NCBI GenBank assembly: GCA_026395955.1
Contig: JAPLXR010000007.1
Location: 1,957 to 65,956, forward strand
DNA length: 64,000 nt
Reading direction: 5' to 3'
Source of the DNA: Candidatus Nomurabacteria bacterium
GTDB taxonomy: Bacteria; Patescibacteriota; Minisyncoccia; Phycocordibacterales; UBA9973
Position numbers and translations under genes: made by a program. A model generated the notes under the pieces. It was not told the DNA's origin. It did not search any database and was given only the letters and a program-made list of their open reading frames with translations. How positions within the stretch are numbered: the stretch's first letter is position 1; each line of letters opens with the position of its first letter. Of this stretch, positions 241-45,624 are shown one piece after another.

Positions 241-284
241 TTTCCCTCTCTAAATCTACATTTGGGGAGGGTCAGGGAGGGGTA
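241..284. repeat. Degenerate copy (C) of GC-rich palindromic G4-capable repeat, 4 nt upstream of pnp ATG
   Basis: tttccctctc...tggggagggtcagggagggg resembles the core of the copies at 28038 and 45006; G-tracts at 264-282. Confidence 0.45.
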
Positions 285-292
285 AATAAATT

Positions 293-6002: not shown

Positions 6003-6038
6003 CTTTTATTTTAAAAAACAAATTGATATAATTAAATT

Positions 6039-17487: not shown

Positions 17488-17507
17488 CTTTATGTTATAA
17501 TTTATAT

Positions 17508-25031: not shown

Positions 25032-27203
25032 ATGAAAAAAAATTTTCCAAAAATAGTAATATCAGTTATAATGATAGGTATTTTTTTGGCACCTGTTGTT
25101 CCAAATTTACAAACAAAAGACGAAAGAGTATCTGTCTCAATAGAAAGTAATACTGCATTGGCTGTAACTTGTCCAACAGGGCAACACGATGATGGGACTG
25201 GAAACTGTGTTGCTGATACGGTTGCGCCAACACAGCAAGCTGGAGACAATCTAGACTTTGGTTGTGGTTATAATCCTCTTACATGGTTTAGACAGTGTAT
25301 CATCACAACAATTTATTATATTATCTTTATTCCACTAGCATGGGTATCATCACTCGCTGCAAACATATTAGACTTTTTTATTTATTATTCTACAAACAGT
25401 AGTTCTTATTCTGCTGGTTTTGTCAGCACAGGATGGAAGACTGTTAGAGATATCGCTAATATATTTTTCATAATAGCACTTCTATATATAGCAATACAAA
25501 CGATACTGGACATGGGATCTAACGGCAAAAAAATGATAGCCAATATTATCGTTGTAGCTTTGATGATAAATTTTAGTCTATTTTTTACTCAAGTAGTTAT
25601 AGACAGTAGTAATATTCTGGCAAAAGTTTTTTACAATCAAATAACACCCCAAGATAGCAATGGTACTCCTTTACAAGATACTCATAAACAAAAATCGATA
25701 ACAGTTGGACTTGTAGATGCTTTTAGTCCAGAAACAATGCTTCATGATGCAAAAGATGCTCCAGGTAGACAATTTATGATACTAATACTCCTAATCATAA
25801 TGTCCTTCGTAATGATTTATGTTTTTATTTCTATAGCATTACTCTTTGTGGCCAGAGTAGCCGGACTTTGGCTCGCGATGATATTTTCACCTGTTGCTTT
25901 TGCCTCAATAACATTACCTTTTAAAATACCTAGCTTGGGTTGGGATGACTGGAAAAATGATTTATTAAAACAAGCATTCATGGCTCCTATTTTAGTTTTC
26001 TTTCTTTATATAATTTTATTATTCGGTAAAAACCTAAAGTTAATAAATGCTGATGCTGTTAATGCAGGAGGGGATTTTGATGCAATTATGAAAGTAATAA
26101 TTCCTTTCTTTATTGTTATGGTTTTACTTCTACAAGCCAAAAAACTCGCAGGTCAATATTCTGGAGAAATAGGAAAAGCTTTGAATAGTGCAGGTGGAAC
26201 CGTCTTAGGTTTCGCTGCTGGAGCAGTTACAGGAGGTGCTGCAGTATTGGGACAAAAAGTTATCGGTGGAGCCGCTTCAAGAGTTGCAAACAATGATGAA
26301 ACAAAAAGACTAGCAGCTGGTGGTAATGGTATCAGTAAAGATGAACAATTAAAAGCACAAAAAACTCTTGAAAGAGCAAACAGAAGAGCAAGTAAAAGTT
26401 ATGATCTTCGACAAACAAGTGTTGGTGGTTTTGCAGCCAAAAAAGCTGGTCTTGATTTAAATAGTGGAACTGGAGCATTGGGAATGGATACTAGAACACT
26501 AAAAGGTGGATACAGGGCAAAAGTCAAAAGAGCAACCGAAAAAGAAGAAGCTAAACTTAAGACATATGAAATAAGTGGTGAAGCAGCTTCAACACAAAAT
26601 CACAAAGCAGAAGTAAGTAAGGTAAGAAACGAGCAGTATGAAAAAGATAAAAAAGAAGCTCAAGATAAAGGCTTTGTATTTAATGATAAATCAGAACAAA
26701 AGTTTAAAGAAGCATATGAAAAAGGAGAGGATTTAAGAAAATTTGGACTAGATAAAAAATCAGAGGCAGGTAGCGTTGCAATAGTTAAAGATTCAAAAGA
26801 AATAAATATGGACAGAAGAAAAGCTTATGCTGACAGTCTAGTTGATGAAGGCAAAGTAAGAGAAGTAAAAGGGGCAATGAAGTCATTCTTTAGTGAATGG
26901 GGCAATGGAATGAAAACAATGACAACATCAGCAACGGGAATCGGAACAATTGCCACAGCAGGAACATTCTTAGGTCCAGCTGGAGCTTTGGGTGCTTTGT
27001 TAATTGGAAGCTTGAACGAAGCTAGAAAAAATGTAAAAACTGAAGGAATAAAAAGAGATAATTCAGAGTTAATATCAAGTCTACGAAAAGGGCAAGACCC
27101 AAACAAAGCAATTATTGATGAATTAAAGAAAATGAATTCTGGTAAAGATGCCGATTATTCAGAATTAGCTAAAAAAATAAAAGGAGAGGATACAAAAAAA
27201 TAA
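25032..27203 (+). CDS. VirB6/TrbL-like polytopic membrane protein with a long hydrophilic C-terminal extension
   Basis: Signal peptide, Cys-containing periplasmic segment, then ~6-7 TM helices (nt ~25290-26150), K/E-rich tail; architecture typical of VirB6/TrbL. Confidence 0.55.
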   Translation: MKKNFPKIVISVIMIGIFLAPVVPNLQTKDERVSVSIESNTALAVTCPTGQHDDGTGNCVADTVAPTQQAGDNLDFGCGYNPLTWFRQCIITTIYYIIFIPLAWVSSLAANILDFFIYYSTNSSSYSAGFVSTGWKTVRDIANIFFIIALLYIAIQTILDMGSNGKKMIANIIVVALMINFSLFFTQVVIDSSNILAKVFYNQITPQDSNGTPLQDTHKQKSITVGLVDAFSPETMLHDAKDAPGRQFMILILLIIMSFVMIYVFISIALLFVARVAGLWLAMIFSPVAFASITLPFKIPSLGWDDWKNDLLKQAFMAPILVFFLYIILLFGKNLKLINADAVNAGGDFDAIMKVIIPFFIVMVLLLQAKKLAGQYSGEIGKALNSAGGTVLGFAAGAVTGGAAVLGQKVIGGAASRVANNDETKRLAAGGNGISKDEQLKAQKTLERANRRASKSYDLRQTSVGGFAAKKAGLDLNSGTGALGMDTRTLKGGYRAKVKRATEKEEAKLKTYEISGEAASTQNHKAEVSKVRNEQYEKDKKEAQDKGFVFNDKSEQKFKEAYEKGEDLRKFGLDKKSEAGSVAIVKDSKEINMDRRKAYADSLVDEGKVREVKGAMKSFFSEWGNGMKTMTTSATGIGTIATAGTFLGPAGALGALLIGSLNEARKNVKTEGIKRDNSELISSLRKGQDPNKAIIDELKKMNSGKDADYSELAKKIKGEDTKK

Positions 27204-27227
27204 AAATTATAAATAATAAATAAAATT

Positions 27228-28037
27228 ATGGACGAAAATACAAAAAAAATAATAAAAGAAAAATTTGATTCTCTGCCAGAGAGCATCCAAGAAGTTATTT
27301 TGTCTTCAAATTATCAAGACACTTTGGTTGAGATAGGAAAACAAAATAATTTAAGTCTAAACCAAATGGGAACATTAGAACTAGAAGCTACTTTGGTCAT
27401 GATGGGTCTAACTCCGACAGCAGAATTTGAAACAGAACTAACGAAAGAATTAGCCGTCGATCCTATGAAGGGTTCAAAAATAGTGAATGAAATCAATGAA
27501 AAAATATTTATAAAAATCAGAGATTTATTAAAATTAATGAACACCCCAAAAGGAGAGGAACCTAGTTTAGATGCTGAAAACGAACGTTTACACGAAGAAT
27601 CAAATGTTCCTTTTAAAGTATTTACTCCTACAGAAAAAATTACTATTCCAGTAAAAACAGAAAGCCTAATTACTACACTTCAACAAGAAAAAGAATCTAT
27701 TAAAGACAATTCAGTATTAGAAACAGCTGGTATTGAAATAGTGAATCAAGCTCCAATGAGAAATGCTGTACCTTCAGATGCAGGAGGTGAGACAAGAAAT
27801 GAAATATTAAAAAGTGTTGAGCAACCAGAATCAATAGGTAAAACAGTTGAAAAACCAAAAGAAACAAGTAATGTTGGTTCTATTTTGGCCTCCAAGTTAA
27901 CAGAGAGTTTTAAAATCCCTGCAGGAAATACAGAATACACGATGAACAACATGACAAAAGATAATCAAAAAACACAATTAGCTGCAAGCCCAAGTATTCC
28001 AAAAGTTGATCCATACAGAATGCCGTTAGACGAATAA
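27228..28037 (+). CDS. Hypothetical soluble protein (269 aa) within the T4SS-like module
   Basis: ORF between the VirB6-like and PrgI-like genes; no TM segment. Confidence 0.5.
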   Translation: MDENTKKIIKEKFDSLPESIQEVILSSNYQDTLVEIGKQNNLSLNQMGTLELEATLVMMGLTPTAEFETELTKELAVDPMKGSKIVNEINEKIFIKIRDLLKLMNTPKGEEPSLDAENERLHEESNVPFKVFTPTEKITIPVKTESLITTLQQEKESIKDNSVLETAGIEIVNQAPMRNAVPSDAGGETRNEILKSVEQPESIGKTVEKPKETSNVGSILASKLTESFKIPAGNTEYTMNNMTKDNQKTQLAASPSIPKVDPYRMPLDE

Positions 28038-28122
28038 CCCCACCCCAATGCTTTGCATTTTCCCCTCCCCATTTTTTAAAAAAAATGGGGAGGGGTTAAG
28101 GGAGGGGTTCTGCATACATTCG
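28038..28122. repeat. GC-rich palindromic repeat element, copy A (85 bp): G4C4 hairpin with A/T loop plus G-quadruplex-capable tail
   Basis: cccctcccca-T6A8-tggggagggg hairpin (28062-28095); GGGGAGGGGTTAAGGGAGGGG (28087-28107); ~88% identical to 45006-45086. Confidence 0.7.
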
Positions 28123-28147
28123 ATTTGTTTCATGCTAAAATTAAAAT

Positions 28148-28573
28148 ATGCAATTTAAAGTTCCACAATTCTTAGATATAGAAGATAAAATATTCGGACC
28201 TTTTACGTTCCGTCAATTTGCATACATGGCTGGTGGAGCTGGACTTTGTTTTGTAATTTACAGAACAACTTCTTTAATAGTAGGAATAATACCTATTTTA
28301 GCTATAGCTGGTTTTTCTCTCGCTTTAACTTTTTACAAAATAAATAACAAACCTTTTATTTTTGTTTTAGAAGCTGCTTTTAGTTATTTATTTCGTGATA
28401 AATTATATATTTGGAAAAGAAGGTTAAAGAAACCAGGAGAAAAAGAAGCAGAAGACTTGAAGAAAAGCGAAGAAAATACAGAAAACCAAGCAAGGAGAGT
28501 AAGTAAATTAGGTACAAGTAAATTAAAAGATTTAGCATGGAGTTTAGATGTATTAGACGTAAAGAAACAATAA
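28148..28573 (+). CDS. PrgI-family protein (VirB3 analogue of Gram-positive-type T4SS)
   Basis: MQFKVPQFLDIEDKIFGPFTFRQFAYMAGGAGL followed by two TM helices; length and motif typical of the PrgI family. Confidence 0.6.
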   Translation: MQFKVPQFLDIEDKIFGPFTFRQFAYMAGGAGLCFVIYRTTSLIVGIIPILAIAGFSLALTFYKINNKPFIFVLEAAFSYLFRDKLYIWKRRLKKPGEKEAEDLKKSEENTENQARRVSKLGTSKLKDLAWSLDVLDVKKQ

Positions 28574-28582
28574 TAAAATTAT

Positions 28583-29236
28583 ATGGCATTATCAGCAAAA
28601 GCAACTCAAGAGTTCGTCCCAATAAAAGAAGTCCGCGATGGTATCGTGGTTCTTAAAGATGGGGGACTTCGTGCTATTGTTTTGGCCAATTCTACAAACT
28701 TATCTCTAAAATCAGCAGATGAACAAAAAGCTACGATAATGCAATTCCAATCTTTTTTGAATACTATAGATTTTCCAATTCAAATAGTTGTCCAATCAAG
28801 ACGCCTAGATATTCGTCCATATCTTTTACTTTTAGAAAATAGAATAAAAGTACAAAACGAACCACTCTTGAAAGTTCAAACAAAAGAATATATGGAATTT
28901 ATCAGAAACTTCACTGAGACTACAAATATAATGACAAAAAGTTTCTTTGTAGTTGTTCCTTATACACCAAACAAATTAGCTTCAACGGGTGGAATTTTTA
29001 GTAATTTTTTTAATAAAAAAAACAAAGCAATGGAAAAAGAAGCTCAGAAGCAGGATTTTGAAGAAAAAAGATCTCAACTTGATCAAAGAATAGGAATAAT
29101 AGAGCAAGGATTAGCACGTTGTGGTTTGAAATCTGTAGAGCTTGGAACCGAAGAAGTAGTAGAAGTTTATTATAAAGTTTTTAACCCAGGTGAAGTTGAA
29201 GGTAAAATAGATTTAGGACAAGGACAATCAGCATAA
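28583..29236 (+). CDS. VirB4/TraC-family ATPase, N-terminal domain fragment
   Basis: FVPIKEVRDGIVVLKDGGLRAIVLANSTNLSL...EQKATIMQFQSFLNTIDFPIQIVV matches the conserved N-terminus of VirB4/CD1110-type ATPases. Confidence 0.5.
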   Translation: MALSAKATQEFVPIKEVRDGIVVLKDGGLRAIVLANSTNLSLKSADEQKATIMQFQSFLNTIDFPIQIVVQSRRLDIRPYLLLLENRIKVQNEPLLKVQTKEYMEFIRNFTETTNIMTKSFFVVVPYTPNKLASTGGIFSNFFNKKNKAMEKEAQKQDFEEKRSQLDQRIGIIEQGLARCGLKSVELGTEEVVEVYYKVFNPGEVEGKIDLGQGQSA

Positions 29237-29270
29237 TACTGTTATAATATAACAAGTTAAATAAATATAT

Positions 29271-31109
29271 ATGTCGATATTTGATTCATTATTTGGAAAA
29301 AAGAAAACAGGAAAAGATGCCACCAGGGCTTCTGTTTTAGCCGTATTACCAGAAGAAATATATGAATCAGCAACACTAGAACTCCAAGATATAATAGCCC
29401 CTTCAGCATTAAAAGTAGAACCGAAATCATTAAACTTAGGGGATAAAATAGCTCGTACATTTTTCGTTATTTCTTATCCTAGATTCCTCACAGACAATTG
29501 GTTTTCTCCAATCATTAACTTGGATAAAATTTTTGATGTTGCTATCTATATACACCCAATAGATACATCATTAGCATTACGTGAATTTCAAAAGAAGGTT
29601 GCTGAAGTACAAAGTCAGATAAATGCTCGTGAATCAAAAGGTATGGTTCGTGATCCTATGCTTGATACTGCGAACGAAGATTTGGAAAATCTTCGTGACA
29701 GTTTAATGCAGGCACAAGAAAAGATGTTTGATGTTGGATTATATATTACTATTTATGCCGACAATGACCTAGAATTATTTAAAATAGAAAGTGAAATAAA
29801 ATCTATCCTAGAATCAAAACTTATTTATTTAAAACCTGCCTTATTCCAACAAGATGAAGGTTTTAAAAGTGTTATACCGATAGGTAATGATACTCTAAAT
29901 GTTCATCAAAAATTAAATTCTGAGCCATTATCGAGTATTTTTCCATTCGTTTCTTTCGACCTTACATCAGACAAAGGTATTTTGTACGGTTTAAACAGGC
30001 ACAATTCAAGTCTCGTTATCTTCGATAGATTTTCTCTCGAAAACTATAACTCTGTTATGTTCGCAAAGTCTGGATCCGGAAAATCATATTTTACAAAACT
30101 AGAAATTCTTCGTTCTCTAATGTTTGAAACAGATGTTATTGTTATTGACCCTGAAAGGGAATATGAATTCTTAGCAGAAGCTGTAGGTGGTAGATATTTT
30201 AATATCTCACTTTCTTCTGACCACCATATCAATCCTTTTGATTTACCTATACCACGTGAAGACGAAACAGCTGCTGATGTTTTACGTTCAAACATCATCA
30301 ACCTTGTTGGTTTATTTCGTCTCATGCTAGGAGGACTTACACCGGAAGAAGATTCATTAGTAGATCGTGCTATTTCTGAAACTTATGCAATCAAAGACAT
30401 AACTCCTGATTCTGATTTTTCAAATATTGAACCACCACTTCTTTCAGACTTTGAAATGGTTCTTTCTGGCATGGAAAACAGTGAGTCAGTTATTCAACGT
30501 TTAGTTAAATACACACGTGGATCTTGGTCTACATTCTTAAACAAACCATCAAACGTAGATATTAATAGAAAATTCATAGTTTTCTCTGTACGTGATATGG
30601 AAGATGAATTAAAACCTATCGCGATGTATATAGTTACACACTTTATATGGAATGCTGTACGTAAAAATCTTAAAAAGAGATTACTGGTGGTTGACGAGGC
30701 TTGGTGGATGATGAAAAGTGAAGACACTGCTTCATTCCTTTATAGTATTGCAAAAAGAGGTAGAAAATATTATTTAGGGCTTGCTACTATTACTCAAGAT
30801 GCGGCAGACTTTATGAAATCTCCATACGGAGCACCTATTGTTACAAACTCTTCTATTCAAATACTATTAAAACAATCTCCATCTACAATAGACATTCTAC
30901 AAAAAACATTCAACTTAACAGATGAAGAAAAATATCTCTTACTTGAATCCGGAGTGGGGGAGGGTATATTCTTCGCCGGAACAAAACACGTTGCTTTGAA
31001 AGTAATATCTTCATATACAGAAGACCAGATTATTACTTCTGATCCATCACAAATATTATCTATAAAGAAGGCGAAACAAGAGCTAGCGGAAGCAGAAGGT
31101 AAGAAATAA
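29271..31109 (+). CDS. VirB4/TraC-family T4SS ATPase (central and C-terminal ATPase domains)
   Basis: Walker A AKSGSGKSYF (30061-30090), Walker B LLVVDEAWWMM; pilus-assembly/conjugal ATPase context. Confidence 0.7.
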   Translation: MSIFDSLFGKKKTGKDATRASVLAVLPEEIYESATLELQDIIAPSALKVEPKSLNLGDKIARTFFVISYPRFLTDNWFSPIINLDKIFDVAIYIHPIDTSLALREFQKKVAEVQSQINARESKGMVRDPMLDTANEDLENLRDSLMQAQEKMFDVGLYITIYADNDLELFKIESEIKSILESKLIYLKPALFQQDEGFKSVIPIGNDTLNVHQKLNSEPLSSIFPFVSFDLTSDKGILYGLNRHNSSLVIFDRFSLENYNSVMFAKSGSGKSYFTKLEILRSLMFETDVIVIDPEREYEFLAEAVGGRYFNISLSSDHHINPFDLPIPREDETAADVLRSNIINLVGLFRLMLGGLTPEEDSLVDRAISETYAIKDITPDSDFSNIEPPLLSDFEMVLSGMENSESVIQRLVKYTRGSWSTFLNKPSNVDINRKFIVFSVRDMEDELKPIAMYIVTHFIWNAVRKNLKKRLLVVDEAWWMMKSEDTASFLYSIAKRGRKYYLGLATITQDAADFMKSPYGAPIVTNSSIQILLKQSPSTIDILQKTFNLTDEEKYLLLESGVGEGIFFAGTKHVALKVISSYTEDQIITSDPSQILSIKKAKQELAEAEGKK

Positions 31110-31163
31110 AAATAAAAGATTTTAGTCTTTTATAACTTATGATTATAGGTTATAATAAATAGA

Positions 31164-32144
31164 ATGATAAAAAGGTTCAAAATTTCAGCTATTATATTTA
31201 CTTTAATGTTTTTTGCTTTTTCTGCTCATGCAGAAGTACATAATAGTGATATTATTTTAAATACATCGCCTAGATTTCCTAATCCAAATCAAAATGTTAA
31301 GGCAAGTGTCAGCACTTATGCAACAGATTTAAATAAGGCAAACATATCTTGGTCTATAAATGGAAAAGAGTCTGCAGTTGGTGTAGGTAAAAAAGATTTT
31401 ACTTTTACAATGGGAAATGTCGGTGAATCTTTGAGCCTCGAAGCTAAAATAGAAACAGTTGAAGGACAGAGTATTAATAAAAATATTCTTTTAACTCCAG
31501 CTGAAGTAGACATGCTTTGGGAGGGTTATGATTCATACACACCACCTTTTTATCGTGGAAAAACATTAGTTCCAGAAGAGGGAACTTTTAAAGTCGTTGC
31601 TATGCCAAACCTAACAACAACATACGGACACATGAATCCAGAAAATCTATCTTATATATGGAAACAAGATGATAATGGCCAACCACAAGCTTCTGGTTGG
31701 GGTAAGAATTATTATACTTTCAAAAATAGTTATTTAGATAAAAACAATAAAATAGAAGTAACTGCTTCTGACATAACAGGTGCGACTAATGCAACAGGGA
31801 ATCTAACTTTATATACAGCAAATCCTGAAATACTTTTTTATGAAAACAATCCAAATCTAGGTATAAATTATAGCTCTGTAATAAACAATGGTTTCAATAT
31901 AAATAAAAAAGGAGAGACTTTTGTGGTAGAACCTTATTTCTTTGAACCAAGAGATTTAAGTTCTCCAAACCTACAATTCGATTGGTCAATAAATGACACA
32001 CAAACAGCTACGCCAACTCCTAAGAATTTTCTATCTATAAAACCAGACCCAAATCAATCCGGAAGTGCTAAAATAAACATATCGATTAATAATGCAAAAA
32101 CACTTTTCCAAAGTTTAACCAAAGAATTAAATGTTAATTTTTAA
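31164..32144 (+). CDS. Secreted protein (326 aa), unknown function
   Basis: Signal peptide (AIIFTLMFFAFSAHA); stop overlaps the start region of the next gene. Confidence 0.55.
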   Translation: MIKRFKISAIIFTLMFFAFSAHAEVHNSDIILNTSPRFPNPNQNVKASVSTYATDLNKANISWSINGKESAVGVGKKDFTFTMGNVGESLSLEAKIETVEGQSINKNILLTPAEVDMLWEGYDSYTPPFYRGKTLVPEEGTFKVVAMPNLTTTYGHMNPENLSYIWKQDDNGQPQASGWGKNYYTFKNSYLDKNNKIEVTASDITGATNATGNLTLYTANPEILFYENNPNLGINYSSVINNGFNINKKGETFVVEPYFFEPRDLSSPNLQFDWSINDTQTATPTPKNFLSIKPDPNQSGSAKINISINNAKTLFQSLTKELNVNF

Positions 32145-32145
32145 T

Positions 32146-33981
32146 ATGAAAAAAATAATCTCAAAAATTTTAATAAGCACTATACTTGCTTCTATTGTGT
32201 TTGGGTTTTTTGTATTTAATCCTAAAACATCTTTTGCTACAGGCACTTGTACAGTTCAATCTGCGACATTTACTCCAAACGGAACTCAGGTTGCTGCATG
32301 GTATCATGATGGACACGAACCAGAAGTACTGGTTGATATAGTAACAACAAACTGTGAAGGGCAAACAATACAGGCATCTATTCGAGCTACAATACAACAG
32401 CAAAGCATTGCAGCATTAAACAGAAAGGATATTATCGTACCTGCAAGCAATCACATGATCATCCATATGAAGGCAGGAGAAGATACTTGTACTAGTATTG
32501 GCCACTCTTCTACTACCCCGGATTGTACCTTCTTTATTGCTGTATACCTCCCAGGAACATTAGTAACACCTGATTACGAAACTAACTCGCAAGCAACAAC
32601 TGCAGGTAAATTACTGTATAAATGTGACGGTTATTGTACTACTGCCAACTGGCAATTTCTCTACGTTGATCGAGTGGGTGGGCAAGTATCTTTTGATACA
32701 AACAGTTTTATTACCCAAGTCAACACCACAGCAGCTAATTTGAGTCTGATCATTCTAACTACCGAAGACGGCTATGTGAACAACTCAGCTGGTGTAACAT
32801 TAACCGATGCTACTGGTGCAGTAATCGGAACCGAACAACTTGTTCCTATAGCAAATAATACAGCGACTCAAACAGTGCATGCTCAATTTCCTAATCTTAC
32901 TGCGGGAGCAAGTTACGCATGGCGTGCGCACATCACTAAAAGTGACACAAATGTAATTAAAAGTATTACGAAAACATTTACCTTACAAGATAGTTCACAT
33001 AATGGTCAACCTCTTACAAGTGGCACTGCTCCGCAATTAGACACGGGCCACCTGGATGATACATCTTCTTCTGTAAACACTAATACCGATTATTATCCAT
33101 TAGCACCATTACCAGGAGTAGGGGTGGTGTGTTCAAATAATCCAGATACAAACGACCCGACAAATAAAAATTGTATTCATACACAAAAAGATGAATCTAC
33201 AAACCCTTGTCCTTTTGGAGATTATTTAAATGCTTTAATAAAAATATTTATCGGTATTTGTGCAGTCTTAGCTTTTATAATGATCGTTCTCGGTGGAATA
33301 GAATATATCACAAGCGAGCTCATCTCTAATAAGGCAGAAGGCAAGAAGCGCATAACCGGCGCAATATTCGGTCTCATTCTCGCTCTTGCTTCTTATGCAT
33401 TACTTAACACAATCAATCCTGCAGTGTTACAGGTTTGTTTAAATCAATTGCCTCAAGCAACAGTAACAATAGGTGGTGATACAAATACTCCAATTGCTAG
33501 CAACATAACAGGTACACTTCCTTCTGGGATAGTATGTACTAGTGGACAATCAAACATACCAGCTATTGCAAATAGTTTTGCTGGTAAGATGACTTATCTT
33601 ATGGGAGCAAAAGGAACTCCAGGACCAAACAACACAATACAACTTGATTGTTCTGGTTTCGTAAACTATGTATTAAAATGCGCTGGTGTACCATTTATAA
33701 ACGGAGGTACAGCAAATATCTTTAGTGGAGCTGAAAATGTAACTTCGATTTCTGGAAGTTCAGTAAATGGTCAAGCATTACATATAGGAGATTTATTAGG
33801 ATGGATGCCAGGAGAACTAGGAAATAAATACGGAGGCTCAGGTCACGTAATGATATATATAGGAAATAGCAGTGTTCAAGCAGCAGATTCTCATGGAGGA
33901 TCTTCTGTTGGAAATGCATTAGGAGTATTTCCAATAACAAAGTATGCAACAGATATTAAACACATTAAAAGAGCACCATAA
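32146..33981 (+). CDS. Secreted/membrane protein with C-terminal NlpC/P60 (CHAP-like) cell-wall hydrolase domain; candidate VirB1-like hydrolase
   Basis: Signal peptide; TM pair near IFIGICAVLAFIMIVLGG...GAIFGLILALASYALL; catalytic Cys in LDCSGFV and His in GHVMIY. Confidence 0.65.
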   Translation: MKKIISKILISTILASIVFGFFVFNPKTSFATGTCTVQSATFTPNGTQVAAWYHDGHEPEVLVDIVTTNCEGQTIQASIRATIQQQSIAALNRKDIIVPASNHMIIHMKAGEDTCTSIGHSSTTPDCTFFIAVYLPGTLVTPDYETNSQATTAGKLLYKCDGYCTTANWQFLYVDRVGGQVSFDTNSFITQVNTTAANLSLIILTTEDGYVNNSAGVTLTDATGAVIGTEQLVPIANNTATQTVHAQFPNLTAGASYAWRAHITKSDTNVIKSITKTFTLQDSSHNGQPLTSGTAPQLDTGHLDDTSSSVNTNTDYYPLAPLPGVGVVCSNNPDTNDPTNKNCIHTQKDESTNPCPFGDYLNALIKIFIGICAVLAFIMIVLGGIEYITSELISNKAEGKKRITGAIFGLILALASYALLNTINPAVLQVCLNQLPQATVTIGGDTNTPIASNITGTLPSGIVCTSGQSNIPAIANSFAGKMTYLMGAKGTPGPNNTIQLDCSGFVNYVLKCAGVPFINGGTANIFSGAENVTSISGSSVNGQALHIGDLLGWMPGELGNKYGGSGHVMIYIGNSSVQAADSHGGSSVGNALGVFPITKYATDIKHIKRAP

Positions 33982-33989
33982 ATTATAAT

Positions 33990-35363
33990 ATGCAAAAAAG
34001 AAACGTAATACTTTTAATAATCACTCTCGGGGCCATCACACTTGGTTTCTTTATATATTTATATATGTTCCCAAGCACAAAACCATTAACACAAAACACA
34101 GATTCAGGTTCTTTTAATTTCTTTCCATTTGGAAGTACTCCTAAAAAGGGGACTACAGACAATCCGGCAAACATATCAGGAATAATTACAAATAACCCAT
34201 TAACAGACAATCCAGTTGTAAATAACGCAAAAATAAAAAAAATCTCTAGTTTCCCTGTAGCAGGTTATGGTATATATAACAAACAAATTTTCCAAAACAT
34301 ACCACTAGAGACACCTTCATCAACTCCAATGATAGATCAAACAGCTACAAGTACACCAAAAAAGGCAGTAGCTAAAACACCAGCAGTAAAACCTACACCA
34401 CCACCTACGATACTCGTCACCACAGTTAGATACGTAAACAAAGAAACAGGTAACATATACCAAACACCAGCAGATAATATCAGCGAGACAAAATACACAG
34501 CAACAATAATTCCAAAAATATATGAATCATTTTTTGCAAACAATTCTGGTCAAGTTATAATGCGTTATTTAAAAGAAGACTATAAGACAATAGAAACTTA
34601 TCTAGGAACACTCCCTGTAGAAGTTCTAGGAGGGGACTCAACAAACACAAATGAAATAAAAGGTTCTTTCTTGCCAGAAAACATTACAGACATGAGTGTT
34701 TCTCCAGACGAAAGTAATATTTTTTACTTAATAAATTCTAATAATTCTACAGTAGGTGTCACAGCAGGAGCATTAGGAGACAAGAAGACTCAAATATTTA
34801 ATTCTGCTTTTAATGGTTGGATTACACAATGGCCAAATGCAAAAATAATTACAATTACAACAAAAGCTGCAGCGGGTTATCCTGGATATATGTATTCAAT
34901 AGATCCATCAATGAAAACTATAAATAAAGTTATTGGTGGAATAAGTGGCCTTACAACACTCATGAGTCCTTCAGGAAATTTTGTTCTATACAATACTTCA
35001 AATAATGGAACAGTTAGTCTAAATATTTATCACACAGATACAGGCAATTCAGATCAATTGGGAATAAAAACTTTACCAGAAAAATGTGTTTGGGCTAAAG
35101 CAAGTAGTTCTCTATACTGTGCAGTTCCTCGTTTTATGGATAGTGCTAAATATCCAGATGACTGGTATAAAGGATTAATTTCTTTTGGAGATGAAATTTG
35201 GAAAGTAGATTTAACTAATGGAAATGCAAAGAAAATAGCAGACTCAGTACAAACAACAGGGGAGGAAGTAGATGGAATAAAATTAGGAATAGATGATGGA
35301 GAAAATTATTTATTCTTCATAAACAAAAAAGACGGCTATCTCTGGGAATTGAATTTAAAATAA
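33990..35363 (+). CDS. N-terminally anchored extracytoplasmic protein (457 aa), unknown function
   Basis: Single N-terminal TM, then Thr/Pro-rich linker and a beta-rich domain; last gene of the island. Confidence 0.55.
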   Translation: MQKRNVILLIITLGAITLGFFIYLYMFPSTKPLTQNTDSGSFNFFPFGSTPKKGTTDNPANISGIITNNPLTDNPVVNNAKIKKISSFPVAGYGIYNKQIFQNIPLETPSSTPMIDQTATSTPKKAVAKTPAVKPTPPPTILVTTVRYVNKETGNIYQTPADNISETKYTATIIPKIYESFFANNSGQVIMRYLKEDYKTIETYLGTLPVEVLGGDSTNTNEIKGSFLPENITDMSVSPDESNIFYLINSNNSTVGVTAGALGDKKTQIFNSAFNGWITQWPNAKIITITTKAAAGYPGYMYSIDPSMKTINKVIGGISGLTTLMSPSGNFVLYNTSNNGTVSLNIYHTDTGNSDQLGIKTLPEKCVWAKASSSLYCAVPRFMDSAKYPDDWYKGLISFGDEIWKVDLTNGNAKKIADSVQTTGEEVDGIKLGIDDGENYLFFINKKDGYLWELNLK

Positions 35364-35368
35364 TATAA

Positions 35369-35396
35369 AAAACCGGCATTGCCGGTTTTTTATATA
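35369..35396. terminator. Bidirectional terminator between convergent genes
   Basis: aaaaaCCGGCAttGCCGGtttttt. Confidence 0.7.
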
Positions 35397-35875
35397 TTAC
35401 CTATATATTTAATAACTACATGACGACTTGGTCCAAAACCAGCTGATTCAGATTTTAAATCAGAATGATTTGAAACATATTCATGAACAATACGGCGATC
35501 AAAAGCTGACATTGGCTCCACTTCAACACTAGACTGAAAATAACGAGCTCTTTCGGCAATCATATGAGCGACAGCTTTAACACTTTCAACTCTTTTCTTT
35601 TGAAGATCTCCAATATCTATCAATATACCTTCATGTCCACCTTCTATATTTTCATTTAAAACAGGTTGGTTCTTTTCAAGAACCCTTTTAACCAAGTGAT
35701 TCAAGGCATGCAACGCTTCACCTTCACGATTAGTAAAAAAATGAGGTTGATCTACTATGATAGAGTACCATGTTGTTTTAGAATTTTCAGGAGTTTCAAC
35801 AATAATATCAGAAACAGTTATATTCATATTTTGAATAATGTCTTTTATTAAATTTTGAATTTCTTGTTTATTCAT
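35390..35875 (-). CDS. jag: Jag/KhpB-like RNA-binding protein (KH plus R3H domains)
   Basis: R3H signature SAFDRRIVHEYV...GFGPSRHVVI; gene order jag-yidC-yidD-rnpA-rpmH. Confidence 0.85.
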   Translation of the reverse strand: MNKQEIQNLIKDIIQNMNITVSDIIVETPENSKTTWYSIIVDQPHFFTNREGEALHALNHLVKRVLEKNQPVLNENIEGGHEGILIDIGDLQKKRVESVKAVAHMIAERARYFQSSVEVEPMSAFDRRIVHEYVSNHSDLKSESAGFGPSRHVVIKYIGNI

Positions 35876-35889
35876 AATATTTTAAAAAA

Positions 35890-36609
35890 TTACTTGATAA
35901 CTAAATTCTTGTTTTTCTTATTAACATGGATTTGTTGAAAGACAGTAAAAACATTACTTGTAATCCAATATAAGGCAATTGCACCAGAAATACGGTAAGC
36001 AATAAAGGTGATAAGGATAGGGAAGACGTATTTCATCTGCATTTGCATACTTCGAGCAAAACTTTCTTGGAAAGAATTACCTCCAGTGTCTGGAGTATTT
36101 GGTTTTGGCATATAATAAGCCTGGAAGAATTGTGACGCACCGGCCAAAATAGCTAAGATTAAACTCTTACTAGCTAAGTCTATACCTAGGAAATACATAT
36201 TTATCTTTGCTGGAATATGAACAAAAGAATATAAAATATCAGCATTAAAATCTATACCCTTAAAGAAAACATAATATAAAGCTAAAATAATAGGAATTTG
36301 TATAAAAACTAAAAGACAACCAGAAAATGGATTGGTCTTGTATTCTTTATATAATTCGAAAGTCTTTTTAGCTTGTTCTTCTTTGTTTAAACCAGAAGCT
36401 TTAATCTTTGCTATCTCTGGCTCTAAAAGCTTCATTTTTGACTGAGATTCAATAGAGCGACGAGAAAGGGGAATAAGTGCTGTTTTAACTAAAAGAGTTA
36501 ATAAAATAACAGCAATACCAACATTTCCACCAGGAATAAAAGAAACAATTAAGGCCAAAGCATTAACAAAAGGTTTATATAAAATTGAATTCCAAAGATT
36601 ATGTAACAT
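35890..36609 (-). CDS. yidC: Membrane protein insertase YidC (short form)
   Basis: 239 aa, 5 TM segments, motifs PLSRRS...QSKMKLLEPEIAKIK and NPFSGCL. Confidence 0.9.
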   Translation of the reverse strand: MLHNLWNSILYKPFVNALALIVSFIPGGNVGIAVILLTLLVKTALIPLSRRSIESQSKMKLLEPEIAKIKASGLNKEEQAKKTFELYKEYKTNPFSGCLLVFIQIPIILALYYVFFKGIDFNADILYSFVHIPAKINMYFLGIDLASKSLILAILAGASQFFQAYYMPKPNTPDTGGNSFQESFARSMQMQMKYVFPILITFIAYRISGAIALYWITSNVFTVFQQIHVNKKNKNLVIK

Positions 36610-36645
36610 TCTCTCATTCTACTCTAGAATTATAAAAAATCAAAG

Positions 36646-36864
36646 TTACTTTAATGGATCTATATGGTTTTTTTGCCAAGGGTGACAACGGAGAATACGT
36701 AAGATACTTAAATATAAACCTTTTAATACACCATATTTTTCAAAGGCTTGTTTTGAATATTCAGAGCAAGTAGGATAAAAAATGCAATTACCCTTATTTT
36801 TTAAGGGTGATATGCTTTTTTGGTAAAAATTAATGAATTTTATTAAGTATTTCTTTAATTTCAT
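36646..36864 (-). CDS. yidD: Membrane protein insertion efficiency factor YidD
   Basis: ISPL...CIFYPTCSEYSKQAFEKYG...RCHPW motif. Confidence 0.9.
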   Translation of the reverse strand: MKLKKYLIKFINFYQKSISPLKNKGNCIFYPTCSEYSKQAFEKYGVLKGLYLSILRILRCHPWQKNHIDPLK

Positions 36865-37192
36865 TTTCTAAATTTAATGTTGGATTATAAAGCTTATTTT
36901 TCTTTTTACCAAAGATATCAAGACTCTTTTTACCAAATACAAATACTCCTGTAGTATTTTTAGGTAATAAATCAAAATATTTTCTAATAACGGCATAACC
37001 ACGACGACGTAATAAATTTCTTCCTACAGCTCTTTTACAAACACTTTTAGGTGCAGTAAAAGAAATTTGAGGGGAGTCTATTTCAGGATACTTTATATAT
37101 TTAAAGGATAAATTAGTAGAATTAACAAAACAGCCTTGTTTAAAGACTTTTTCAACCGTTTTACGGTCAGTTCTGTTTTTTTGAGTTAGCAT
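36830..37192 (-). CDS. rnpA: RNase P protein component RnpA
   Basis: Basic 120-aa protein overlapping yidD start, directly downstream of rpmH; RNR-like LRRRGYAV. Confidence 0.85.
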   Translation of the reverse strand: MLTQKNRTDRKTVEKVFKQGCFVNSTNLSFKYIKYPEIDSPQISFTAPKSVCKRAVGRNLLRRRGYAVIRKYFDLLPKNTTGVFVFGKKSLDIFGKKKNKLYNPTLNLENEIKEILNKIH

Positions 37193-37206
37193 ACGCTAAA
37201 ATAAGC

Positions 37207-37341
37207 TTATACTGCAAGCTTTTTTCGTCCTTTTTGTAAACGACGCTTTAGAACAGCTTTACCATTTTTAGTCTTTGAACGGACTAAGAAGCCGTGAGTT
37301 GTTGCTCTTTTTCTCTTTTTAGGTTGGTATGTTTGTGACAT
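37207..37341 (-). CDS. rpmH: 50S ribosomal protein L34
   Basis: Reverse-strand translation [44 protein letters not shown], 44 aa; absent from the ORF table because under 60 aa. Confidence 0.9.
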
Positions 37342-37415
37342 ATTTATATACTATAATATTTTTATTTAAAAATCAAGAAATAACTATATAAATCATTAAT
37401 ATTAGAGTAGCTGAG

Positions 37416-37424
37416 TTATCCACA
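37416..37424 (+). promoter_or_regulatory. Consensus DnaA box TTATCCACA upstream of dnaA
   Basis: Exact 9-mer in the rpmH-dnaA intergenic region. Confidence 0.6.
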
Positions 37425-37492
37425 GTTTATAAACATGGTTAATAAGTTTTAGTAATTTCCTTTGAAACACGAGAGCGGGTATAATAGTAAGC

Positions 37493-38854
37493 ATGATTGA
37501 TGCAAAAGAACTTTGGAGAAAGTGTTTAGGTGAAATAGAAAATGAAGTTTCAAAAGCTAATTTTAGTACATGGTTTAAAAATACTTGTATATTAAAAGAG
37601 GACACGGGTGTTATATATATTGGTGTACCAAATGAGTTTGTTCGTGATTGGTTAAAAAATAAATATCACAAATTAATAACTAAAACTATTGCTGATTTCT
37701 ATGATTCAATGAGAGCAGTAGAATACTCTATCACTAAAATAGATAGCTTACAAAAAGATGTACAAATAGGAGGAGAATCTAATCAACAAAATACAAACAA
37801 GGAACTTCCATTGAAAGATCTTTATATAAACAAAGACGATAATTTAAATCCTAGATATAGATTTGATTCCTTTATTGTTGGACCATTTAATGAATTAGCC
37901 TATTCAGCTGCTCAAAATATCGTTGCAAAACCAGGAATGAATTATAATCCATTCTTCGTTTATGGTGGAACAGGTTTAGGAAAAACTCATTTACTCCAAG
38001 CAATAGGCAACGCTATAAAAGAAAAGTATCAAGATAAAAAAGTTCATTATATAACTCTTGAGAAATTTGCTACAGATTTAGTTAATTCTTTCCAAGCAGG
38101 GAACAATAAAGCAAATGCATTTAAAGAAAAATATCGTAAATATGATTTATTAATCATAGACGATATTCAATTCATTGGAAAAATGGAAAAAACTCAAGAA
38201 GAACTTTTTCATACATTTAATACTTTTCACGAAAACAATAAACAAATAGTTTTTTCTTCTGATAAACATCCGAACTTTATTCCAGGACTCGAAGACAGAT
38301 TGAAGTCTCGTTTTTCTGCTGGAATGATTGTAGATATTTCAGAACCAGAATATGAATCTCGTTTGGCTATTTTAAAAGTTAAATTACAAGAACTTGGAAT
38401 AACACTAGAAGACGAATTAGTTCAATATGTAGCTGAAGCTATTCAAGGGAATATTCGTGAATTAGAAGGTTCTCTAAACACAATAATAGCCCAATTACGC
38501 CTTAAAAATAGACCTATTTCAGTAAATGAAGTTAAAAATTTAATTAAAAATAATATTAAACCAAAGAAGAATGTAGCTATTAAAGAAATAGTAAAGATTG
38601 TTGCTGATTTTTATAACTTAGAAGAAGCAGAAATATACGAAAAAACTCGTCGTAAAGAAATAGTAAGAGCTAGACAAGTAGTTATGTATGTACTTCGTGA
38701 AGATTTTAATATTTCTTATCCTTTAATAGGACAAAAACTCGGGGGTAAAGATCACACTACAGTTATTCATTCACATTTAAAAATAAAATCTGATTTAAAA
38801 ACTGATCCGAGTTTGGTCCAAGATTTAGAACAGATAAGAGTATTATTTAAGTAG
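37493..38854 (+). CDS. dnaA: Chromosomal replication initiator DnaA
   Basis: Walker A GGTGLGKTHL, Walker B LLIIDDIQF, sensor/arginine-finger region and C-terminal DNA-binding helix (VMYVLRED...GGKDHTTVIHS). Confidence 0.95.
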   Translation: MIDAKELWRKCLGEIENEVSKANFSTWFKNTCILKEDTGVIYIGVPNEFVRDWLKNKYHKLITKTIADFYDSMRAVEYSITKIDSLQKDVQIGGESNQQNTNKELPLKDLYINKDDNLNPRYRFDSFIVGPFNELAYSAAQNIVAKPGMNYNPFFVYGGTGLGKTHLLQAIGNAIKEKYQDKKVHYITLEKFATDLVNSFQAGNNKANAFKEKYRKYDLLIIDDIQFIGKMEKTQEELFHTFNTFHENNKQIVFSSDKHPNFIPGLEDRLKSRFSAGMIVDISEPEYESRLAILKVKLQELGITLEDELVQYVAEAIQGNIRELEGSLNTIIAQLRLKNRPISVNEVKNLIKNNIKPKKNVAIKEIVKIVADFYNLEEAEIYEKTRRKEIVRARQVVMYVLREDFNISYPLIGQKLGGKDHTTVIHSHLKIKSDLKTDPSLVQDLEQIRVLFK

Positions 38855-39105
38855 TTGAAAACATTGTGGAAAAAGTAATGAAAAGTTAATAATAAAAAAT
38901 GGATAAAAGAAATTAACTACTTAATAAAATGTTAATAAAAAATTGTAAAAAATAAATTATGTGGATAACATTAAAATTATTAAAAAGAAATTAAATTACA
39001 AATATAAAAAATAGCGTTATAAATAAAATATAAAAACTACTTATCCACTTATCCACTTGTATAGTAGTAATAATAAATTATATATATAATATTTAATAAA
39101 ATACT
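38855..39105. other. Candidate oriC: DnaA-box cluster plus AT-rich unwinding element between dnaA and dnaN
   Basis: TGTGGATAA (38960-38968), TTATCCACT twice (39041-39049 and 39049-39057), degenerate boxes at ~38869 and ~38899, then a >90% AT stretch up to dnaN. Confidence 0.7.
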
Positions 39106-40203
39106 ATGAAATTAGAAATCAATATTGAAAAAATAAAAAATGCGATTAACTTAACAGAGAAAGTAACTGGTAAAAATTTAACTCTTCCTATTCTATCTTC
39201 AATACTTTTTATTGCATCTGGAAAATCTTTAAAATTAAGAGCTACGAATCTAAGCGTTGGTATTGAAATAGAATTACCAGCTAAAATAGAAAAAGAAGGA
39301 GTAGTAGCTATTTCTGGTTCTGTAATCTCTGGAGTATTTTCTAATATTATCCAAAATGACAATGTTATCTTAAATGAAGAAGATGGTAATTTAATTATTC
39401 AAACAAAAAAAAGTAAAATTAAATTAAAATGTCAGCCATATGAAGATTTCCCAACTATACCTACTGTAGATGGTCAAAACTTCCTTATAGAAGGAAATAA
39501 ACTTGTAGATGGTATAAAATCTGTTTATTATAGTTCAGCTGTTTCTGATATAAAACCAGAGATTTCTAGTGTTTATATATATTCAAATAATGATGATTTA
39601 ACTTTTGTATCTACAGATTCATTTCGTTTAGCTGAAAAGAAAATTAAAATTAAAAATTTAACTGAAATAACTGGAATATTAATACCTTTTAAAAATATTC
39701 CTGAAATATTACGTATTTTTGGAGATAATACAGGAGAAGTTAAAGTTTGTTTTAATAAGAATCAAATATCTATGTTTATGGATGGTATATATTTTACTTC
39801 TCGTATTATAGATGGAGTATTTCCAGATTATAAACAAATAATGCCAAAAGAAAATAAAACAGAAGCTATTGTCTTAAAACAAGATTTATTAAATGCATTA
39901 AAACTTTCAAATATTTTTTCAGATAAATTTAATCAGTTAAATCTTTCTATTAAACCAAAAGAAAAGATATTTGAAATATATTCTCAAAATTCAAATGTTG
40001 GAGAAAATAAAACAGCACTCGATGCAGCACTAACAGGGAACGATGTAGAACTTTCATTTAATTATAAATATTTCTTAGATTGCCTAAGCTCTATAAATTC
40101 CGACAGTATTGTTTTAAGATTAAATGAATCAAATCGTCCAATGGTTATATCTGGAGTGTCTGACGGGTCATTTACATACCTTATAATGCCAATGAATAGA
40201 TAA
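39106..40203 (+). CDS. dnaN: DNA polymerase III beta sliding clamp
   Basis: 365 aa, three-domain clamp directly after dnaA/oriC; N-terminus MKLEINIEKIKNAINLTEKV. Confidence 0.9.
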   Translation: MKLEINIEKIKNAINLTEKVTGKNLTLPILSSILFIASGKSLKLRATNLSVGIEIELPAKIEKEGVVAISGSVISGVFSNIIQNDNVILNEEDGNLIIQTKKSKIKLKCQPYEDFPTIPTVDGQNFLIEGNKLVDGIKSVYYSSAVSDIKPEISSVYIYSNNDDLTFVSTDSFRLAEKKIKIKNLTEITGILIPFKNIPEILRIFGDNTGEVKVCFNKNQISMFMDGIYFTSRIIDGVFPDYKQIMPKENKTEAIVLKQDLLNALKLSNIFSDKFNQLNLSIKPKEKIFEIYSQNSNVGENKTALDAALTGNDVELSFNYKYFLDCLSSINSDSIVLRLNESNRPMVISGVSDGSFTYLIMPMNR

Positions 40204-40213
40204 GTATATCTCT

Positions 40214-40471
40214 ATGATAGAAATAAAAGATTTATTATCTAAATTTAATGATTTATTACTTTCAGGAGGGTTAAGGAAAGATACAGTTCGAACTGTTATT
40301 TCTGAAACTATAGGAATAGAAATAAAATCAGAAGATATAGAAATAAAAAATGGAACAGTAAAATTAAATATTAAACCTATTTATAAAAATGAAATTTTTA
40401 TAAAACAAGAAATAATACTATCTAAACTTTCAGAAATACTCGGTAAAAAATCCCCACAAAATATTAGATAA
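40214..40471 (+). CDS. DUF721/DciA-like small protein following dnaN
   Basis: 85 aa; alternating hydrophobic pattern resembles DUF721 proteins commonly encoded next to dnaN. Confidence 0.4.
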   Translation: MIEIKDLLSKFNDLLLSGGLRKDTVRTVISETIGIEIKSEDIEIKNGTVKLNIKPIYKNEIFIKQEIILSKLSEILGKKSPQNIR

Positions 40472-40475
40472 ATAT

Positions 40476-42989: not shown

Positions 42990-43026
42990 CCTTTAATCAT
43001 AGCAAATTGTATGTTATTATACGAGT

Positions 43027-44223: not shown

Positions 44224-44257
44224 TAAAAACCCTCGAGCAATCGAGGGTTTTTATTTT
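44224..44257. terminator. Bidirectional terminator
   Basis: aaaaaCCCTCGAgcaaTCGAGGGttttt. Confidence 0.7.
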
Positions 44258-44396
44258 ATAGAGCTTCTTCGTCTTCATGAAAACCAAGAGGTAGATCTAA
44301 ATCTTCGTCTAGAAGATCAGCTGCCTCTAATGGATCCAATTCTTCATCCAAATCAGGACCAATATTCATATCTTTTACTTCATCTTCGTCGTACAT
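44256..44396 (-). CDS. Small highly acidic protein (46 aa), possible last gene of the ruv operon
   Basis: Reverse-strand ORF MYDEDEVKDMNIGPDLDEELDPLEAADLLDEDLDLPLGFHEDEEAL, co-directional with ruvC, ends at the terminator; not in the ORF table (<60 aa). Confidence 0.3.
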   Translation of the reverse strand: MYDEDEVKDMNIGPDLDEELDPLEAADLLDEDLDLPLGFHEDEEAL

Positions 44397-44496
44397 ATTT
44401 GTTTTTTATTTTTTGTTAATTTAAAAAACGACCTTTTAAAAATAATAATCTATTTATGAAACTATTTTATAACAAATATAAACATCTTGTGCAATC

Positions 44497-44988: not shown

Positions 44989-45005
44989 ATTGTAATTATA
45001 TCAGA

Positions 45006-45086
45006 CCTCACCCCAATGCTACGCATTTGCCCCTCCCCATTTTTTAAAAATGGGGAGGGGTTAGGGGAGAGGTTATTCCGCATTCG
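45006..45086. repeat. GC-rich palindromic repeat element, copy B (81 bp), between yebC and ruvC; 3' end overlaps the yebC stop
   Basis: cctcaccccaatgctacgcatttgcccctccccattttttaaaaatggggaggggttaggggagaggttattccgcattcg aligns to 28038-28122. Confidence 0.7.
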
Positions 45087-45612: not shown

Positions 45613-45624
45613 ATCTGTAATATT

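Follow-up and report, generated by a model that had tools for sequence, protein, structure and literature searches.

Results

Three copies of a GC-rich palindromic element adjoin genes in the window

The window, a 64-kb stretch of a Candidatus Nomurabacteria genome, carries two full copies and one degenerate copy of a GC-rich palindrome, each of which lies at the end or the start of a gene, as a preliminary description made from the sequence alone had stated (Table 1). Copy 1 starts one base past the TAA stop codon of the ORF at 27228-28037, and its neighbors are a PrgI-family gene and a TraC-like/VirB4-like cluster. Copy 2 sits among the genes for YebC, RuvC, and RuvB: it ends one base before the TTA that is the minus-strand TAA stop codon (45073-45075) of yebC (45073-45612), and ruvC starts at 44988 on its other side. 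Copy 3 ends 10 nt before the ATG of pnp, the gene for PNPase, at position 293. The canonical orientation of the element (arm, NNN, main hairpin, small hairpin, arm) is found on the minus strand in copy 1, antisense to the flanking T4SS-like genes, and is sense to the flanking genes in copy 2. The G-rich strand of copy 3 is the sense strand, which is the minority orientation within the family described below.

The sequence of the copies is as previously described, and copies 1 and 2 align far above shuffled sequences. Their cores (28038-28107 and 45006-45072) are 87% identical, with 61 matches over 70 and 67 nt, and the longer intervals first delimited for them give 71 matches in the 85 columns of a global alignment, or 88% of the shorter copy. 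The alignment score of 55 compares with a mean of -19.7 and a maximum of 1 for shuffles, and the hairpin pattern has two matches in the window versus 0 expected. The interval originally given for copy 2, 45006-45086, holds as far as 45072, but its last 14 nt (45073-45086) are native yebC coding sequence (...FTNAE*) that is kept in relatives lacking the element. The 16-nt tail next to copy 1 may be either a piece of the insertion or variable native spacer; the ATTCG within it is able to pair with CGAAT at 28031-28035.

TABLE 1 Coordinates of the element copies, their parts, and adjoining features in the window
Feature	Position	Strand	Remarks
Copy 1, two-sided (Nomurabacteria-type) element	28038-28107	-	Model R1, 58.3 bits, E = 4e-13
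Copy 1 outer arm CCCCACCCC	28038-28046		
Copy 1 small hairpin AATGC-TTT-GCATT	28047-28059		
Copy 1 main hairpin CCCCTCCCCA-T6A8-TGGGGAGGGG	28062-28095		Perfect
Copy 1 outer arm GGGAGGGG	28100-28107		Preceded by TTAA
16-nt tail TTCTGCATACATTCGA next to copy 1	28108-28123	.	Present in the window, missing from the empty orthologous site
Copy 2, two-sided element in the yebC/ruvC spacer	45006-45072	-	Model R1, 55.4 bits, E = 2e-12; missing in L210 and L213
Copy 2 arm CCTCACCCC	45006-45014		
Copy 2 small hairpin AATGC-TAC-GCATT	45015-45027		
Copy 2 main hairpin	45030-45060		
Copy 2 arm GGGGAGAGG	45064-45072		Preceded by TTA
Copy 3, degenerate one-sided form	241-285	+	Model R1, 32.9 bits, E = 1.3e-6, full model length
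Copy 3 stem CCCTCTCTAAAT	244-255		
Copy 3 loop	256-259		
Copy 3 stem ATTTGGGGAGGG	260-271		
Copy 3 arm GGGAGGGG	275-282		Preceded by TCA
Possible miniature copy	59666-59696	-	Weak match to model R1, 13.7 bits, E = 0.11
Extended -10-like box TGCTAAAAT-N6 directly before the PrgI-like ATG	28133-28147	+	Context, outside the element
Matching box before ruvC, TGATATAAT-N6-ATG	about 44991-45005	-	

The -10-like box upstream of the PrgI-like gene is kept in relatives with and without the element. This box and its counterpart upstream of ruvC place both full copies between a stop codon and the putative promoter of the next gene. Among the 53 genes of the window (long ORFs), at least 19 have a TATAAT-like -10 hexamer, often TGnTATAAT, that ends 4 to 9 nt before the ATG (for example, at 28133-28147, 44991-45005, 6024-6038, and 17493-17507), and only 2 have a Shine-Dalgarno-like motif. 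These counts suggest that leaderless mRNAs are widespread in this Nomurabacteria genome, and they weaken the earlier idea that copy 3 doubles as a ribosome-binding element of pnp. No ORF of any length was found on the plus strand upstream of pnp (positions 1 to 292 of the window). This noncoding stretch of about 290 nt ends in copy 3 and could be a long pnp leader. Autoregulation of PNPase through a leader hairpin is known in Escherichia coli.

Two further observations concern the surroundings of the copies. The look-alike at 59666-59696 reads TAA-ATACAA-CCCC-TAA-CCCCT-TATC-AGGGG on the plus strand and lies directly behind the stop codon of an ABC-ATPase ORF (58192-59667), with its CCCC-TAA-CCCCT-TATC-AGGGG part starting six bases past that stop; it might represent either a relic of the element or a minimal version. 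The YebC protein encoded beside copy 2 is only 179 aa long in this lineage (45073-45612 in the window and in L210/L213), and Pfam matches its second/third domain partially; YebC of typical bacteria is roughly 240 aa long.

The element belongs to a family shared by Nomurabacteria, Chloroflexota, and tailed phages

The proposal that the copies form a repeat family was borne out by searches outside the window, where loci were obtained as snippets of 2 to 14 kb. A strict 28-base pattern, CCCCTCCCCATTTT-N0-20-AAAATGGGGAGGGG, scanned over 185,579 GTDB species representatives, was found at only 15 loci: 8 in four Nomurabacteria MAGs of 33 to 37% GC, 6 in Chloroflexota (55 to 62% GC), and 1 in an unnamed bin. 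Elsewhere, the same pattern matched 29 metagenome loci and 1 viral contig. Relaxing the loop gave 47 viral loci, and the G side alone, TGGGGAGGGG-NNN-GGGGWGGGG, gave at least 120, for a total of more than 160 loci on viral contigs. These loci form a large family whose core is common to Nomurabacteria (CPR), Chloroflexota, and many uncultured tailed-phage contigs. The contigs with multiple copies are real tailed phages, as they carry terminase, portal, Mu-F-like, capsid, and prohead protease genes. Copy density ranges from 3 to 4 in the 64-kb window to as many as 4 in 5 kb of phage DNA. The commonest form of the element reads tCCCCTCTCCA-AAT..loop..ATT-TGGGGAGGGG-YYR-GGGG(T/A)GGGG on its G-rich strand.

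A covariance model (R1) was built from 44 diverse copies, mostly from phages and Chloroflexota. A search of the window with this model, made without filters, gave matches at 28060-28110 (E = 4e-13), 45028-45075 (E = 2e-12), and 241-285 (E = 1.3e-6), with no other match below an E value of 0.1. Since R1 was built without copy 3 and yet matches it over its full length, the degenerate core copy previously noted near pnp is a true member of the family, in the one-sided form.

A BLAST search against cultured phages and plasmids returned chance fragments only. Rfam 15, applied at gathering thresholds to the window and the 15 loci, found tRNAs, one SSU rRNA, and one SRP RNA, none of them at an element, and in an Rfam E-value scan of 27950-28200, the only matches were to microRNA-like hairpins, at chance level and well under the threshold. 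No description of the family was found in the literature searched, the coverage of which was incomplete, so its novelty is unproven.

The stem base is nearly invariant, and the stem above it covaries

The base of the core hairpin consists of CCCCTC(C/T)CCA paired with TGGGGAGGGG. In the 44-copy alignment, the 10 basal pairs are unchanging except at one position, where 28 copies have T-G and 16 have C-G. Above this base, five pairs covary: 97.3% of their cells are paired, and 74 cells carry double changes, versus 28.5 in shuffles, a level that was reached in 0 of 500 shuffles and that far exceeds those of slid controls. The variable stems comprise 627 Watson-Crick pairs, 9 G-T pairs, and 4 A-C pairs. 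The near-absence of wobble pairs is unlike RNA families and is more in keeping with a DNA palindrome, one whose complementarity is maintained by the way it is copied, than with an RNA. Wobbles in the variable stems were uninformative as a guide to strand choice (9 G-T versus 4 A-C).

GGGG(A/T)GGGG blocks lie 2 to 4 nt from the hairpin, with one or more per element, and the GGGGWGGGG-NNN unit can be amplified in tandem two to five times. When 57 hairpins were picked regardless of their flanks, 26 had an extra G-run block 2 to 5 nt away, where chance would give 0.4% per side, and 31 had no extra block. The center base of the extra block was T in 17 cases and A in 11 but never C or G.

The Nomurabacteria form has blocks on both sides and a small extra hairpin, which yield a three-way junction on either strand, and its main hairpins are palindromic right through the center, with TGCA or T/A runs. 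Each strand of copies 1 and 2 is predicted to adopt the junction with an energy of -43.6 to -46.6 kcal/mol (roughly -44 to -47; -43.9/-46.6 for copy 1), and this stability corresponds to a z score of about -6 relative to shuffles. The AATGC-N3-GCATT palindrome, which had been taken as a defining part of the element, proved to be lineage specific: the small-hairpin stems differ by genome (ATGC/GCAT, GCC/GGC, GAC/GTC, ACAGGC/GCCTGT, or GTCACGCC/GGCGGGAC), and the small hairpin can also be missing altogether. The outer arms of copy 2 carry a compensatory change from C-G to T-A, and the same positions also hold wobbles and mismatches across 13 CPR copies; an outer stem formed by the arms is weakly indicated by these comparisons.

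A palindrome with this layout could instead be a site for a duplex DNA-binding protein, either a dimeric regulator or an orienting sequence of the FtsK type. The invariant 9-mers occur as inverted and direct repeats, the main hairpin of the Nomurabacteria form is palindromic through its center, and GGGGAGGG fits the consensus of the E. coli KOPS, which is GGGNAGGG. However, the variable sequence that separates the half-sites shows self-complementarity in every case, along with covariation, neither of which is required by a duplex-binding protein. The same core is found in distant phyla and phages, and copies are present or absent between close relatives. Near-matches to the 9-mer number 12 in the 64-kb window, and the majority fall within the three copies, as inverted pairs; with only 3 to 4 sites arranged as divergent pairs, the pattern is unlike that of polar orienting sequences, which are frequent and strand polar along each replichore. 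We consider a duplex-binding site highly improbable.

The G-rich half carries a G-quadruplex motif

The preliminary description had pointed to a tail capable of forming a G-quadruplex, and the motif (G>=3 N1-7, four tracts) is indeed present in the G-rich half of all three copies. The tracts are GGGGAGGGG-TTAA-GGGAGGGG in copy 1, GGGGAGGGG-TTA-GGGGAGAGG in copy 2, and GGGGAGGG-TCA-GGGAGGGG in copy 3, with G4Hunter scores of 2.28, 2.12, and 1.96, respectively, and the three copies are the only places in 64 kb at which the score exceeds 1.5. As to the fold, when quadruplexes were allowed (with RNA rather than DNA parameters), the three-way junction was still the predicted minimum-energy fold of copies 1 and 2, copy 3 gave a tie, and the G strand of a one-sided phage copy preferred the quadruplex (-44.0 versus -31.9 kcal/mol).

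These features raise the possibility that the element is a structural switch of DNA (or RNA), in which the hairpin competes with a quadruplex of four tetrads, or with a purine-motif triplex, formed by GGGG-A-GGGG-NNN-GGGG-W-GGGG; on the template strand, such a switch would be a roadblock, a recombination hot spot, or a replication signal. The four G4 tracts are separated by loops of 1, 3, and 1 nt, the blocks are amplified in tandem, and the center base of the block is A or T in 28 of 28 cases, which would suit a one-base loop or the A*A-T and T*A-T triplets of a purine-motif triplex. The exclusive G4Hunter peaks, the quadruplex preference of the one-sided G strand (in the RNA model), and the fact that the G-rich strand is the template strand in most one-sided copies are also consistent with this reading. 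Nevertheless, two of the four G tracts pair with a C-rich partner that is equally conserved, and the stem above it covaries, so the hairpin is under constraint. In addition, copies 1 and 2 keep the junction in the RNA energy model, and 31 of the 57 members lack an extra block. A structural switch is therefore distinctly unlikely, in our view, to be what defines the element.

Switching and mobility might also be combined. The element would then be a switch between hairpin and G-quadruplex (or triplex) that is itself mobile. Its invariant G4-A-G4 blocks would be kept since a host or phage enzyme recognizes the single-stranded G-rich form rather than only the hairpin, and it would act as a programmable barrier on the template strand directly after stop codons, between neighboring, largely leaderless units. 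We regard this combination as quite unlikely; if true, it would represent a new class of structure-defined mobile regulatory DNA in ultra-small CPR bacteria, Chloroflexota, and phages.

Filled and empty orthologous sites point to insertion

The spacer upstream of the PrgI-like gene is 110 nt long in the window, whereas it is 24 nt long in two relatives (L065 and L066) with 82% protein identity, and the extra 86 nt start one base past the stop codon. Similarly, the yebC-ruvC spacer measures 84 nt in the window versus 27 nt in L210 and L213 (RuvC 91% and 88% identical, respectively), with the 67-nt copy 2 replacing about 10 nt of the empty spacer; the source MAGs of L210 and L213 hold copies at other loci. 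In a third filled/empty pair, from phage contigs (L077 versus L152), the insert brings its own TAG, and the upstream ORF is shorter by a few codons. This pair was the only addition from an all-against-all search of the fetched loci for further empty sites. Target-site duplications, which the preliminary description had suggested looking for, were found at none of the three filled/empty pairs (both window sites and L077/L152). Judged by these alignments, both full copies in the window are insertions made without target duplication, and the comparison of filled with empty sites demonstrates that copies are gained and lost at orthologous positions.

Copies were also found at unusual sites that tolerate them. 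In the Nomurabacteria MAG Ike-150m-34 (L014:1107-1225), the 4-nt loop of a 16S rRNA helix, which we take from the alignment to be helix 40, is replaced by 119 nt consisting of AT-rich spacers around a full two-sided element. On phage contig L179 (2947-3000, minus strand), a Mu-F-like head-morphogenesis ORF contains the element in frame, so that it encodes SPTPSPSPNSESTNLERGEA, a proline/serine-rich linker; an out-of-frame TAG still abuts the C-rich block. Nested copies (an element within the loop of another), copies that are back to back or in tandem, and runs of up to five GGGGWGGGG-NNN units were observed at L200:43-175, L181:1334-1445, and L207:370-480 and in L142, L167, L070, and L132. In Chloroflexota, the element sits at the tip of a leader that forms a long imperfect helix, TTACAAT ... 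GGAACTGATGGAAC ... CTGGCGCTCCCTGAGTTCC-GGGAGG. This leader was found at six loci with five distinct sequences, two being identical (L005:5323-5378, L015, L192/L198, L203, and L208), and the element is flipped in one of the five (L208) relative to the others.

In their variable part, copies on the same contig have a mean identity of 0.72, versus 0.41 across contigs. This higher likeness within contigs could be a copy-and-paste signal, with gene conversion as an alternative source.

Copies are biased in position and orientation

Most copies lie within a few bases between a stop codon and the start or promoter of the next gene. The spacing between the C-rich block and the stop codon upstream of it has its peak at 0 to 2 nt, and about 80% of the one-sided copies have the C-rich strand sense to the flanking genes (56 versus 18 for upstream genes and 48 versus 11 for downstream genes). 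The trinucleotide before the C-rich block is YRR, like the internal spacer of the element. Among 201 copies, 25% have a genuine stop codon there, versus ~5% expected. No longer target motif was found beyond YRR, and the GAATAA/GAATAG of three sites does not generalize. Either end of the two-sided Nomurabacteria form can adjoin a stop. The bias in orientation and stop distance could reflect function instead of mere tolerance.

If so, the element might be a cis-acting RNA signal of host and phage, namely, a 3'-end stabilizer, an RNase processing site, or a noncanonical terminator/insulator after stop codons, with the conserved sequence read by a conserved factor such as the anti-Shine-Dalgarno tail of the ribosome, Rho, or an RNase, and with mobility being incidental. 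Along with the ~80% sense bias and the 0- to 2-nt peak, this explanation would account for the several copies that lie between one structural gene and the next in a real tailed phage, the retention of a copy in the conserved Chloroflexota leader, the covariation of the hairpin, and its very stable fold (z score of about -6). It is harder to reconcile with the two full window copies facing opposite ways relative to their genes, with close relatives having the same operons without the element, and with the copies located within 16S rRNA and, in frame, within a protein-coding gene. Moreover, the sense RNA of the commonest form has a C-A mismatch in its stem, wobble pairs are nearly missing from the variable stems, no Rfam family matches, and there is no U-tract in a genome that has ordinary terminators. 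Given these conflicts, we judge an RNA signal, although the strongest alternative to a mobile element, to be fairly unlikely.

Two specific RNA-level roles were rejected. The earlier suggestion of a transcription attenuator or terminator did not hold up: no U-tract follows the hairpin, with the flanks reading TTCTGCAT and TCTGATAT, and the two copies face opposite ways to transcription. A terminator scan of 26500-46400 called neither element and did call a classical bidirectional terminator at 35363-35395, indicating that ordinary terminators are in use in the genome of the window. Stop-codon readthrough or recoding was also rejected, as the readthrough peptides of copies 1 and 2 are short and unrelated (PHPNALHFPLPIF and PLP). 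The bidirectional intrinsic terminator at 35363-35395, AAAAAACCGGCAATGCCGGTTTTTT, lies between convergent genes.

Discussion

A proposed mobile palindrome recognized as a folded strand

Among the four roles offered in the preliminary description, the REP/MITE-like mobile repeat is the one favored by the two empty sites, the 16S rRNA copy, the in-frame phage copy, and the likeness of copies within contigs. Our reading, in which we place slightly more than even confidence, is that the element is a REP/MITE-like nonautonomous mobile palindrome of about 67 to 86 bp, GC rich and devoid of genes, that is recognized as a folded single strand and tolerated where its compact fold harms little. Under this model, a folded single DNA strand would be copied by a hairpin-recognizing enzyme supplied in trans, and this enzyme would recognize the invariant base of the stem, in which a single asymmetry (T opposite G) is frequent. 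Copies would persist at places where the compact fold does little harm, and an inserted element would form the 3' end of the transcript from the upstream gene. In that position, the very stable fold probably slows 3' exonucleases and separates neighboring transcription units, which would be a side effect and not the reason for its existence.

An autonomous parent element, with half-sites around a gene, was sought among the fetched loci, and none was found. Nearly every G-side end in these loci has a C-side partner within 70 nt; solo ends are few, none has a partner kilobases away, and no solo half-site flanks a gene. No clear classical terminal inverted repeats were found either. Lacking both target duplication and a parent element, the element is not a classical MITE.

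Comparison with known palindromic elements

According to PMC3733652, the REP superfamilies are defined by a GTAG or CGTC tag beside the palindrome. No GTAG/CTAC or CGTC/GACG occurs at a fixed position in alignments A1, A3, and A4; the only GTAG is the loop of the small hairpin of copy 2, and it is not found in copy 1. By this definition, the element does not belong to the GTAG/CGTC-tagged REP superfamilies. It nonetheless resembles the REP/BIME sequences of proteobacteria, which are mobilized by RAYT (Y1 HUH) transposases, in several respects: both are short, interspersed, imperfect palindromes without genes or target duplication, both are mostly intergenic and often a few bases from a stop codon, and both form clusters and tandems, with copies in the same genome being similar. 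A conserved stem irregularity could mark the active strand in either case. REPs, however, have nothing that corresponds to the GGGG(A/T)GGGG blocks or to the invariant stem base made of G/C runs, and the hosts of the present element are CPR bacteria, Chloroflexota, and phages. Nor was a RAYT gene, which REPs often flank, seen in the 64 kb of the window and the 2- to 14-kb snippets of other genomes.

Other mobile palindromes share different subsets of these properties. Rickettsia palindromic elements (RPE) insert in frame in protein genes and in RNA genes, where the resulting peptide or helix is tolerated, much as the present element does in the Mu-F-like ORF and in 16S rRNA; by description, however, RPE are 100 to 150 bp long, AT rich like their host genome, confined to Rickettsia, and without G-run architecture. 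The GC clusters and 'byp' elements of yeast mitochondria are likewise short, mobile, GC-rich palindromic islands in an AT-rich genome, located in spacers, variable rRNA regions, and occasionally coding sequence, but they belong to eukaryotic organelles and to unrelated sequence classes that lack the CCCCTCCCCA/TGGGGAGGGG core. MITEs such as the Correia elements of Neisseria are also small nonautonomous inserts with inverted ends that are cotranscribed and form hairpins affecting RNA processing. Correia elements, however, have defined terminal inverted repeats, duplicate a TA target, and possess a parent family of transposases, and no such feature was found for the present element. The subterminal hairpins of IS200/IS605 and the attC sites of integrons share the proposed recognition of a folded single strand: in them, too, the stem is conserved at its base and variable at its top, an irregularity marks the strand, and insertion takes place beside a short motif without duplication. 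These hairpins differ in flanking or accompanying a gene cassette and in needing TnpA or IntI, whereas the present element carries no cargo.

Implications for CPR bacteria, Chloroflexota, and their phages

REP, RPE, and Correia elements have shaped ideas on selfish DNA, mRNA stability, and genome plasticity. To our knowledge, almost all known small palindromic repeats come from cultured proteobacteria; the family described here would extend them to CPR bacteria, with their tiny and supposedly streamlined genomes, to Chloroflexota, and to their phages. The presence of one core sequence in all three implies either horizontal traffic or a shared recognizing enzyme, and model R1 provides a sequence marker with which such traffic, and possibly phage-host links, could be traced. 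The element also accounts for at least one short insertion in CPR 16S rRNA and offers a natural test case for the competition between hairpin and G-quadruplex in bacteria. For genome annotation, proline-rich linkers and altered C termini in such genomes may derive from the element.

Gene content of multicopy phage contigs

The Pfam families of 150 ORFs from phage contigs with multiple copies were surveyed. No transposase was among the 25 listed of the 38 families matched, and no Y1 transposase of the RAYT type was among the same 25, which is a weak test for such an enzyme. Apart from two HNH families and one integrase, the survey found genes that are ordinary for tailed phages. The most frequent family among those listed was DUF5131 (PF07505), with 4 of the 150 ORFs; it was present on phage contigs L058, L098, L113, and L129, as well as others (alignment A5).
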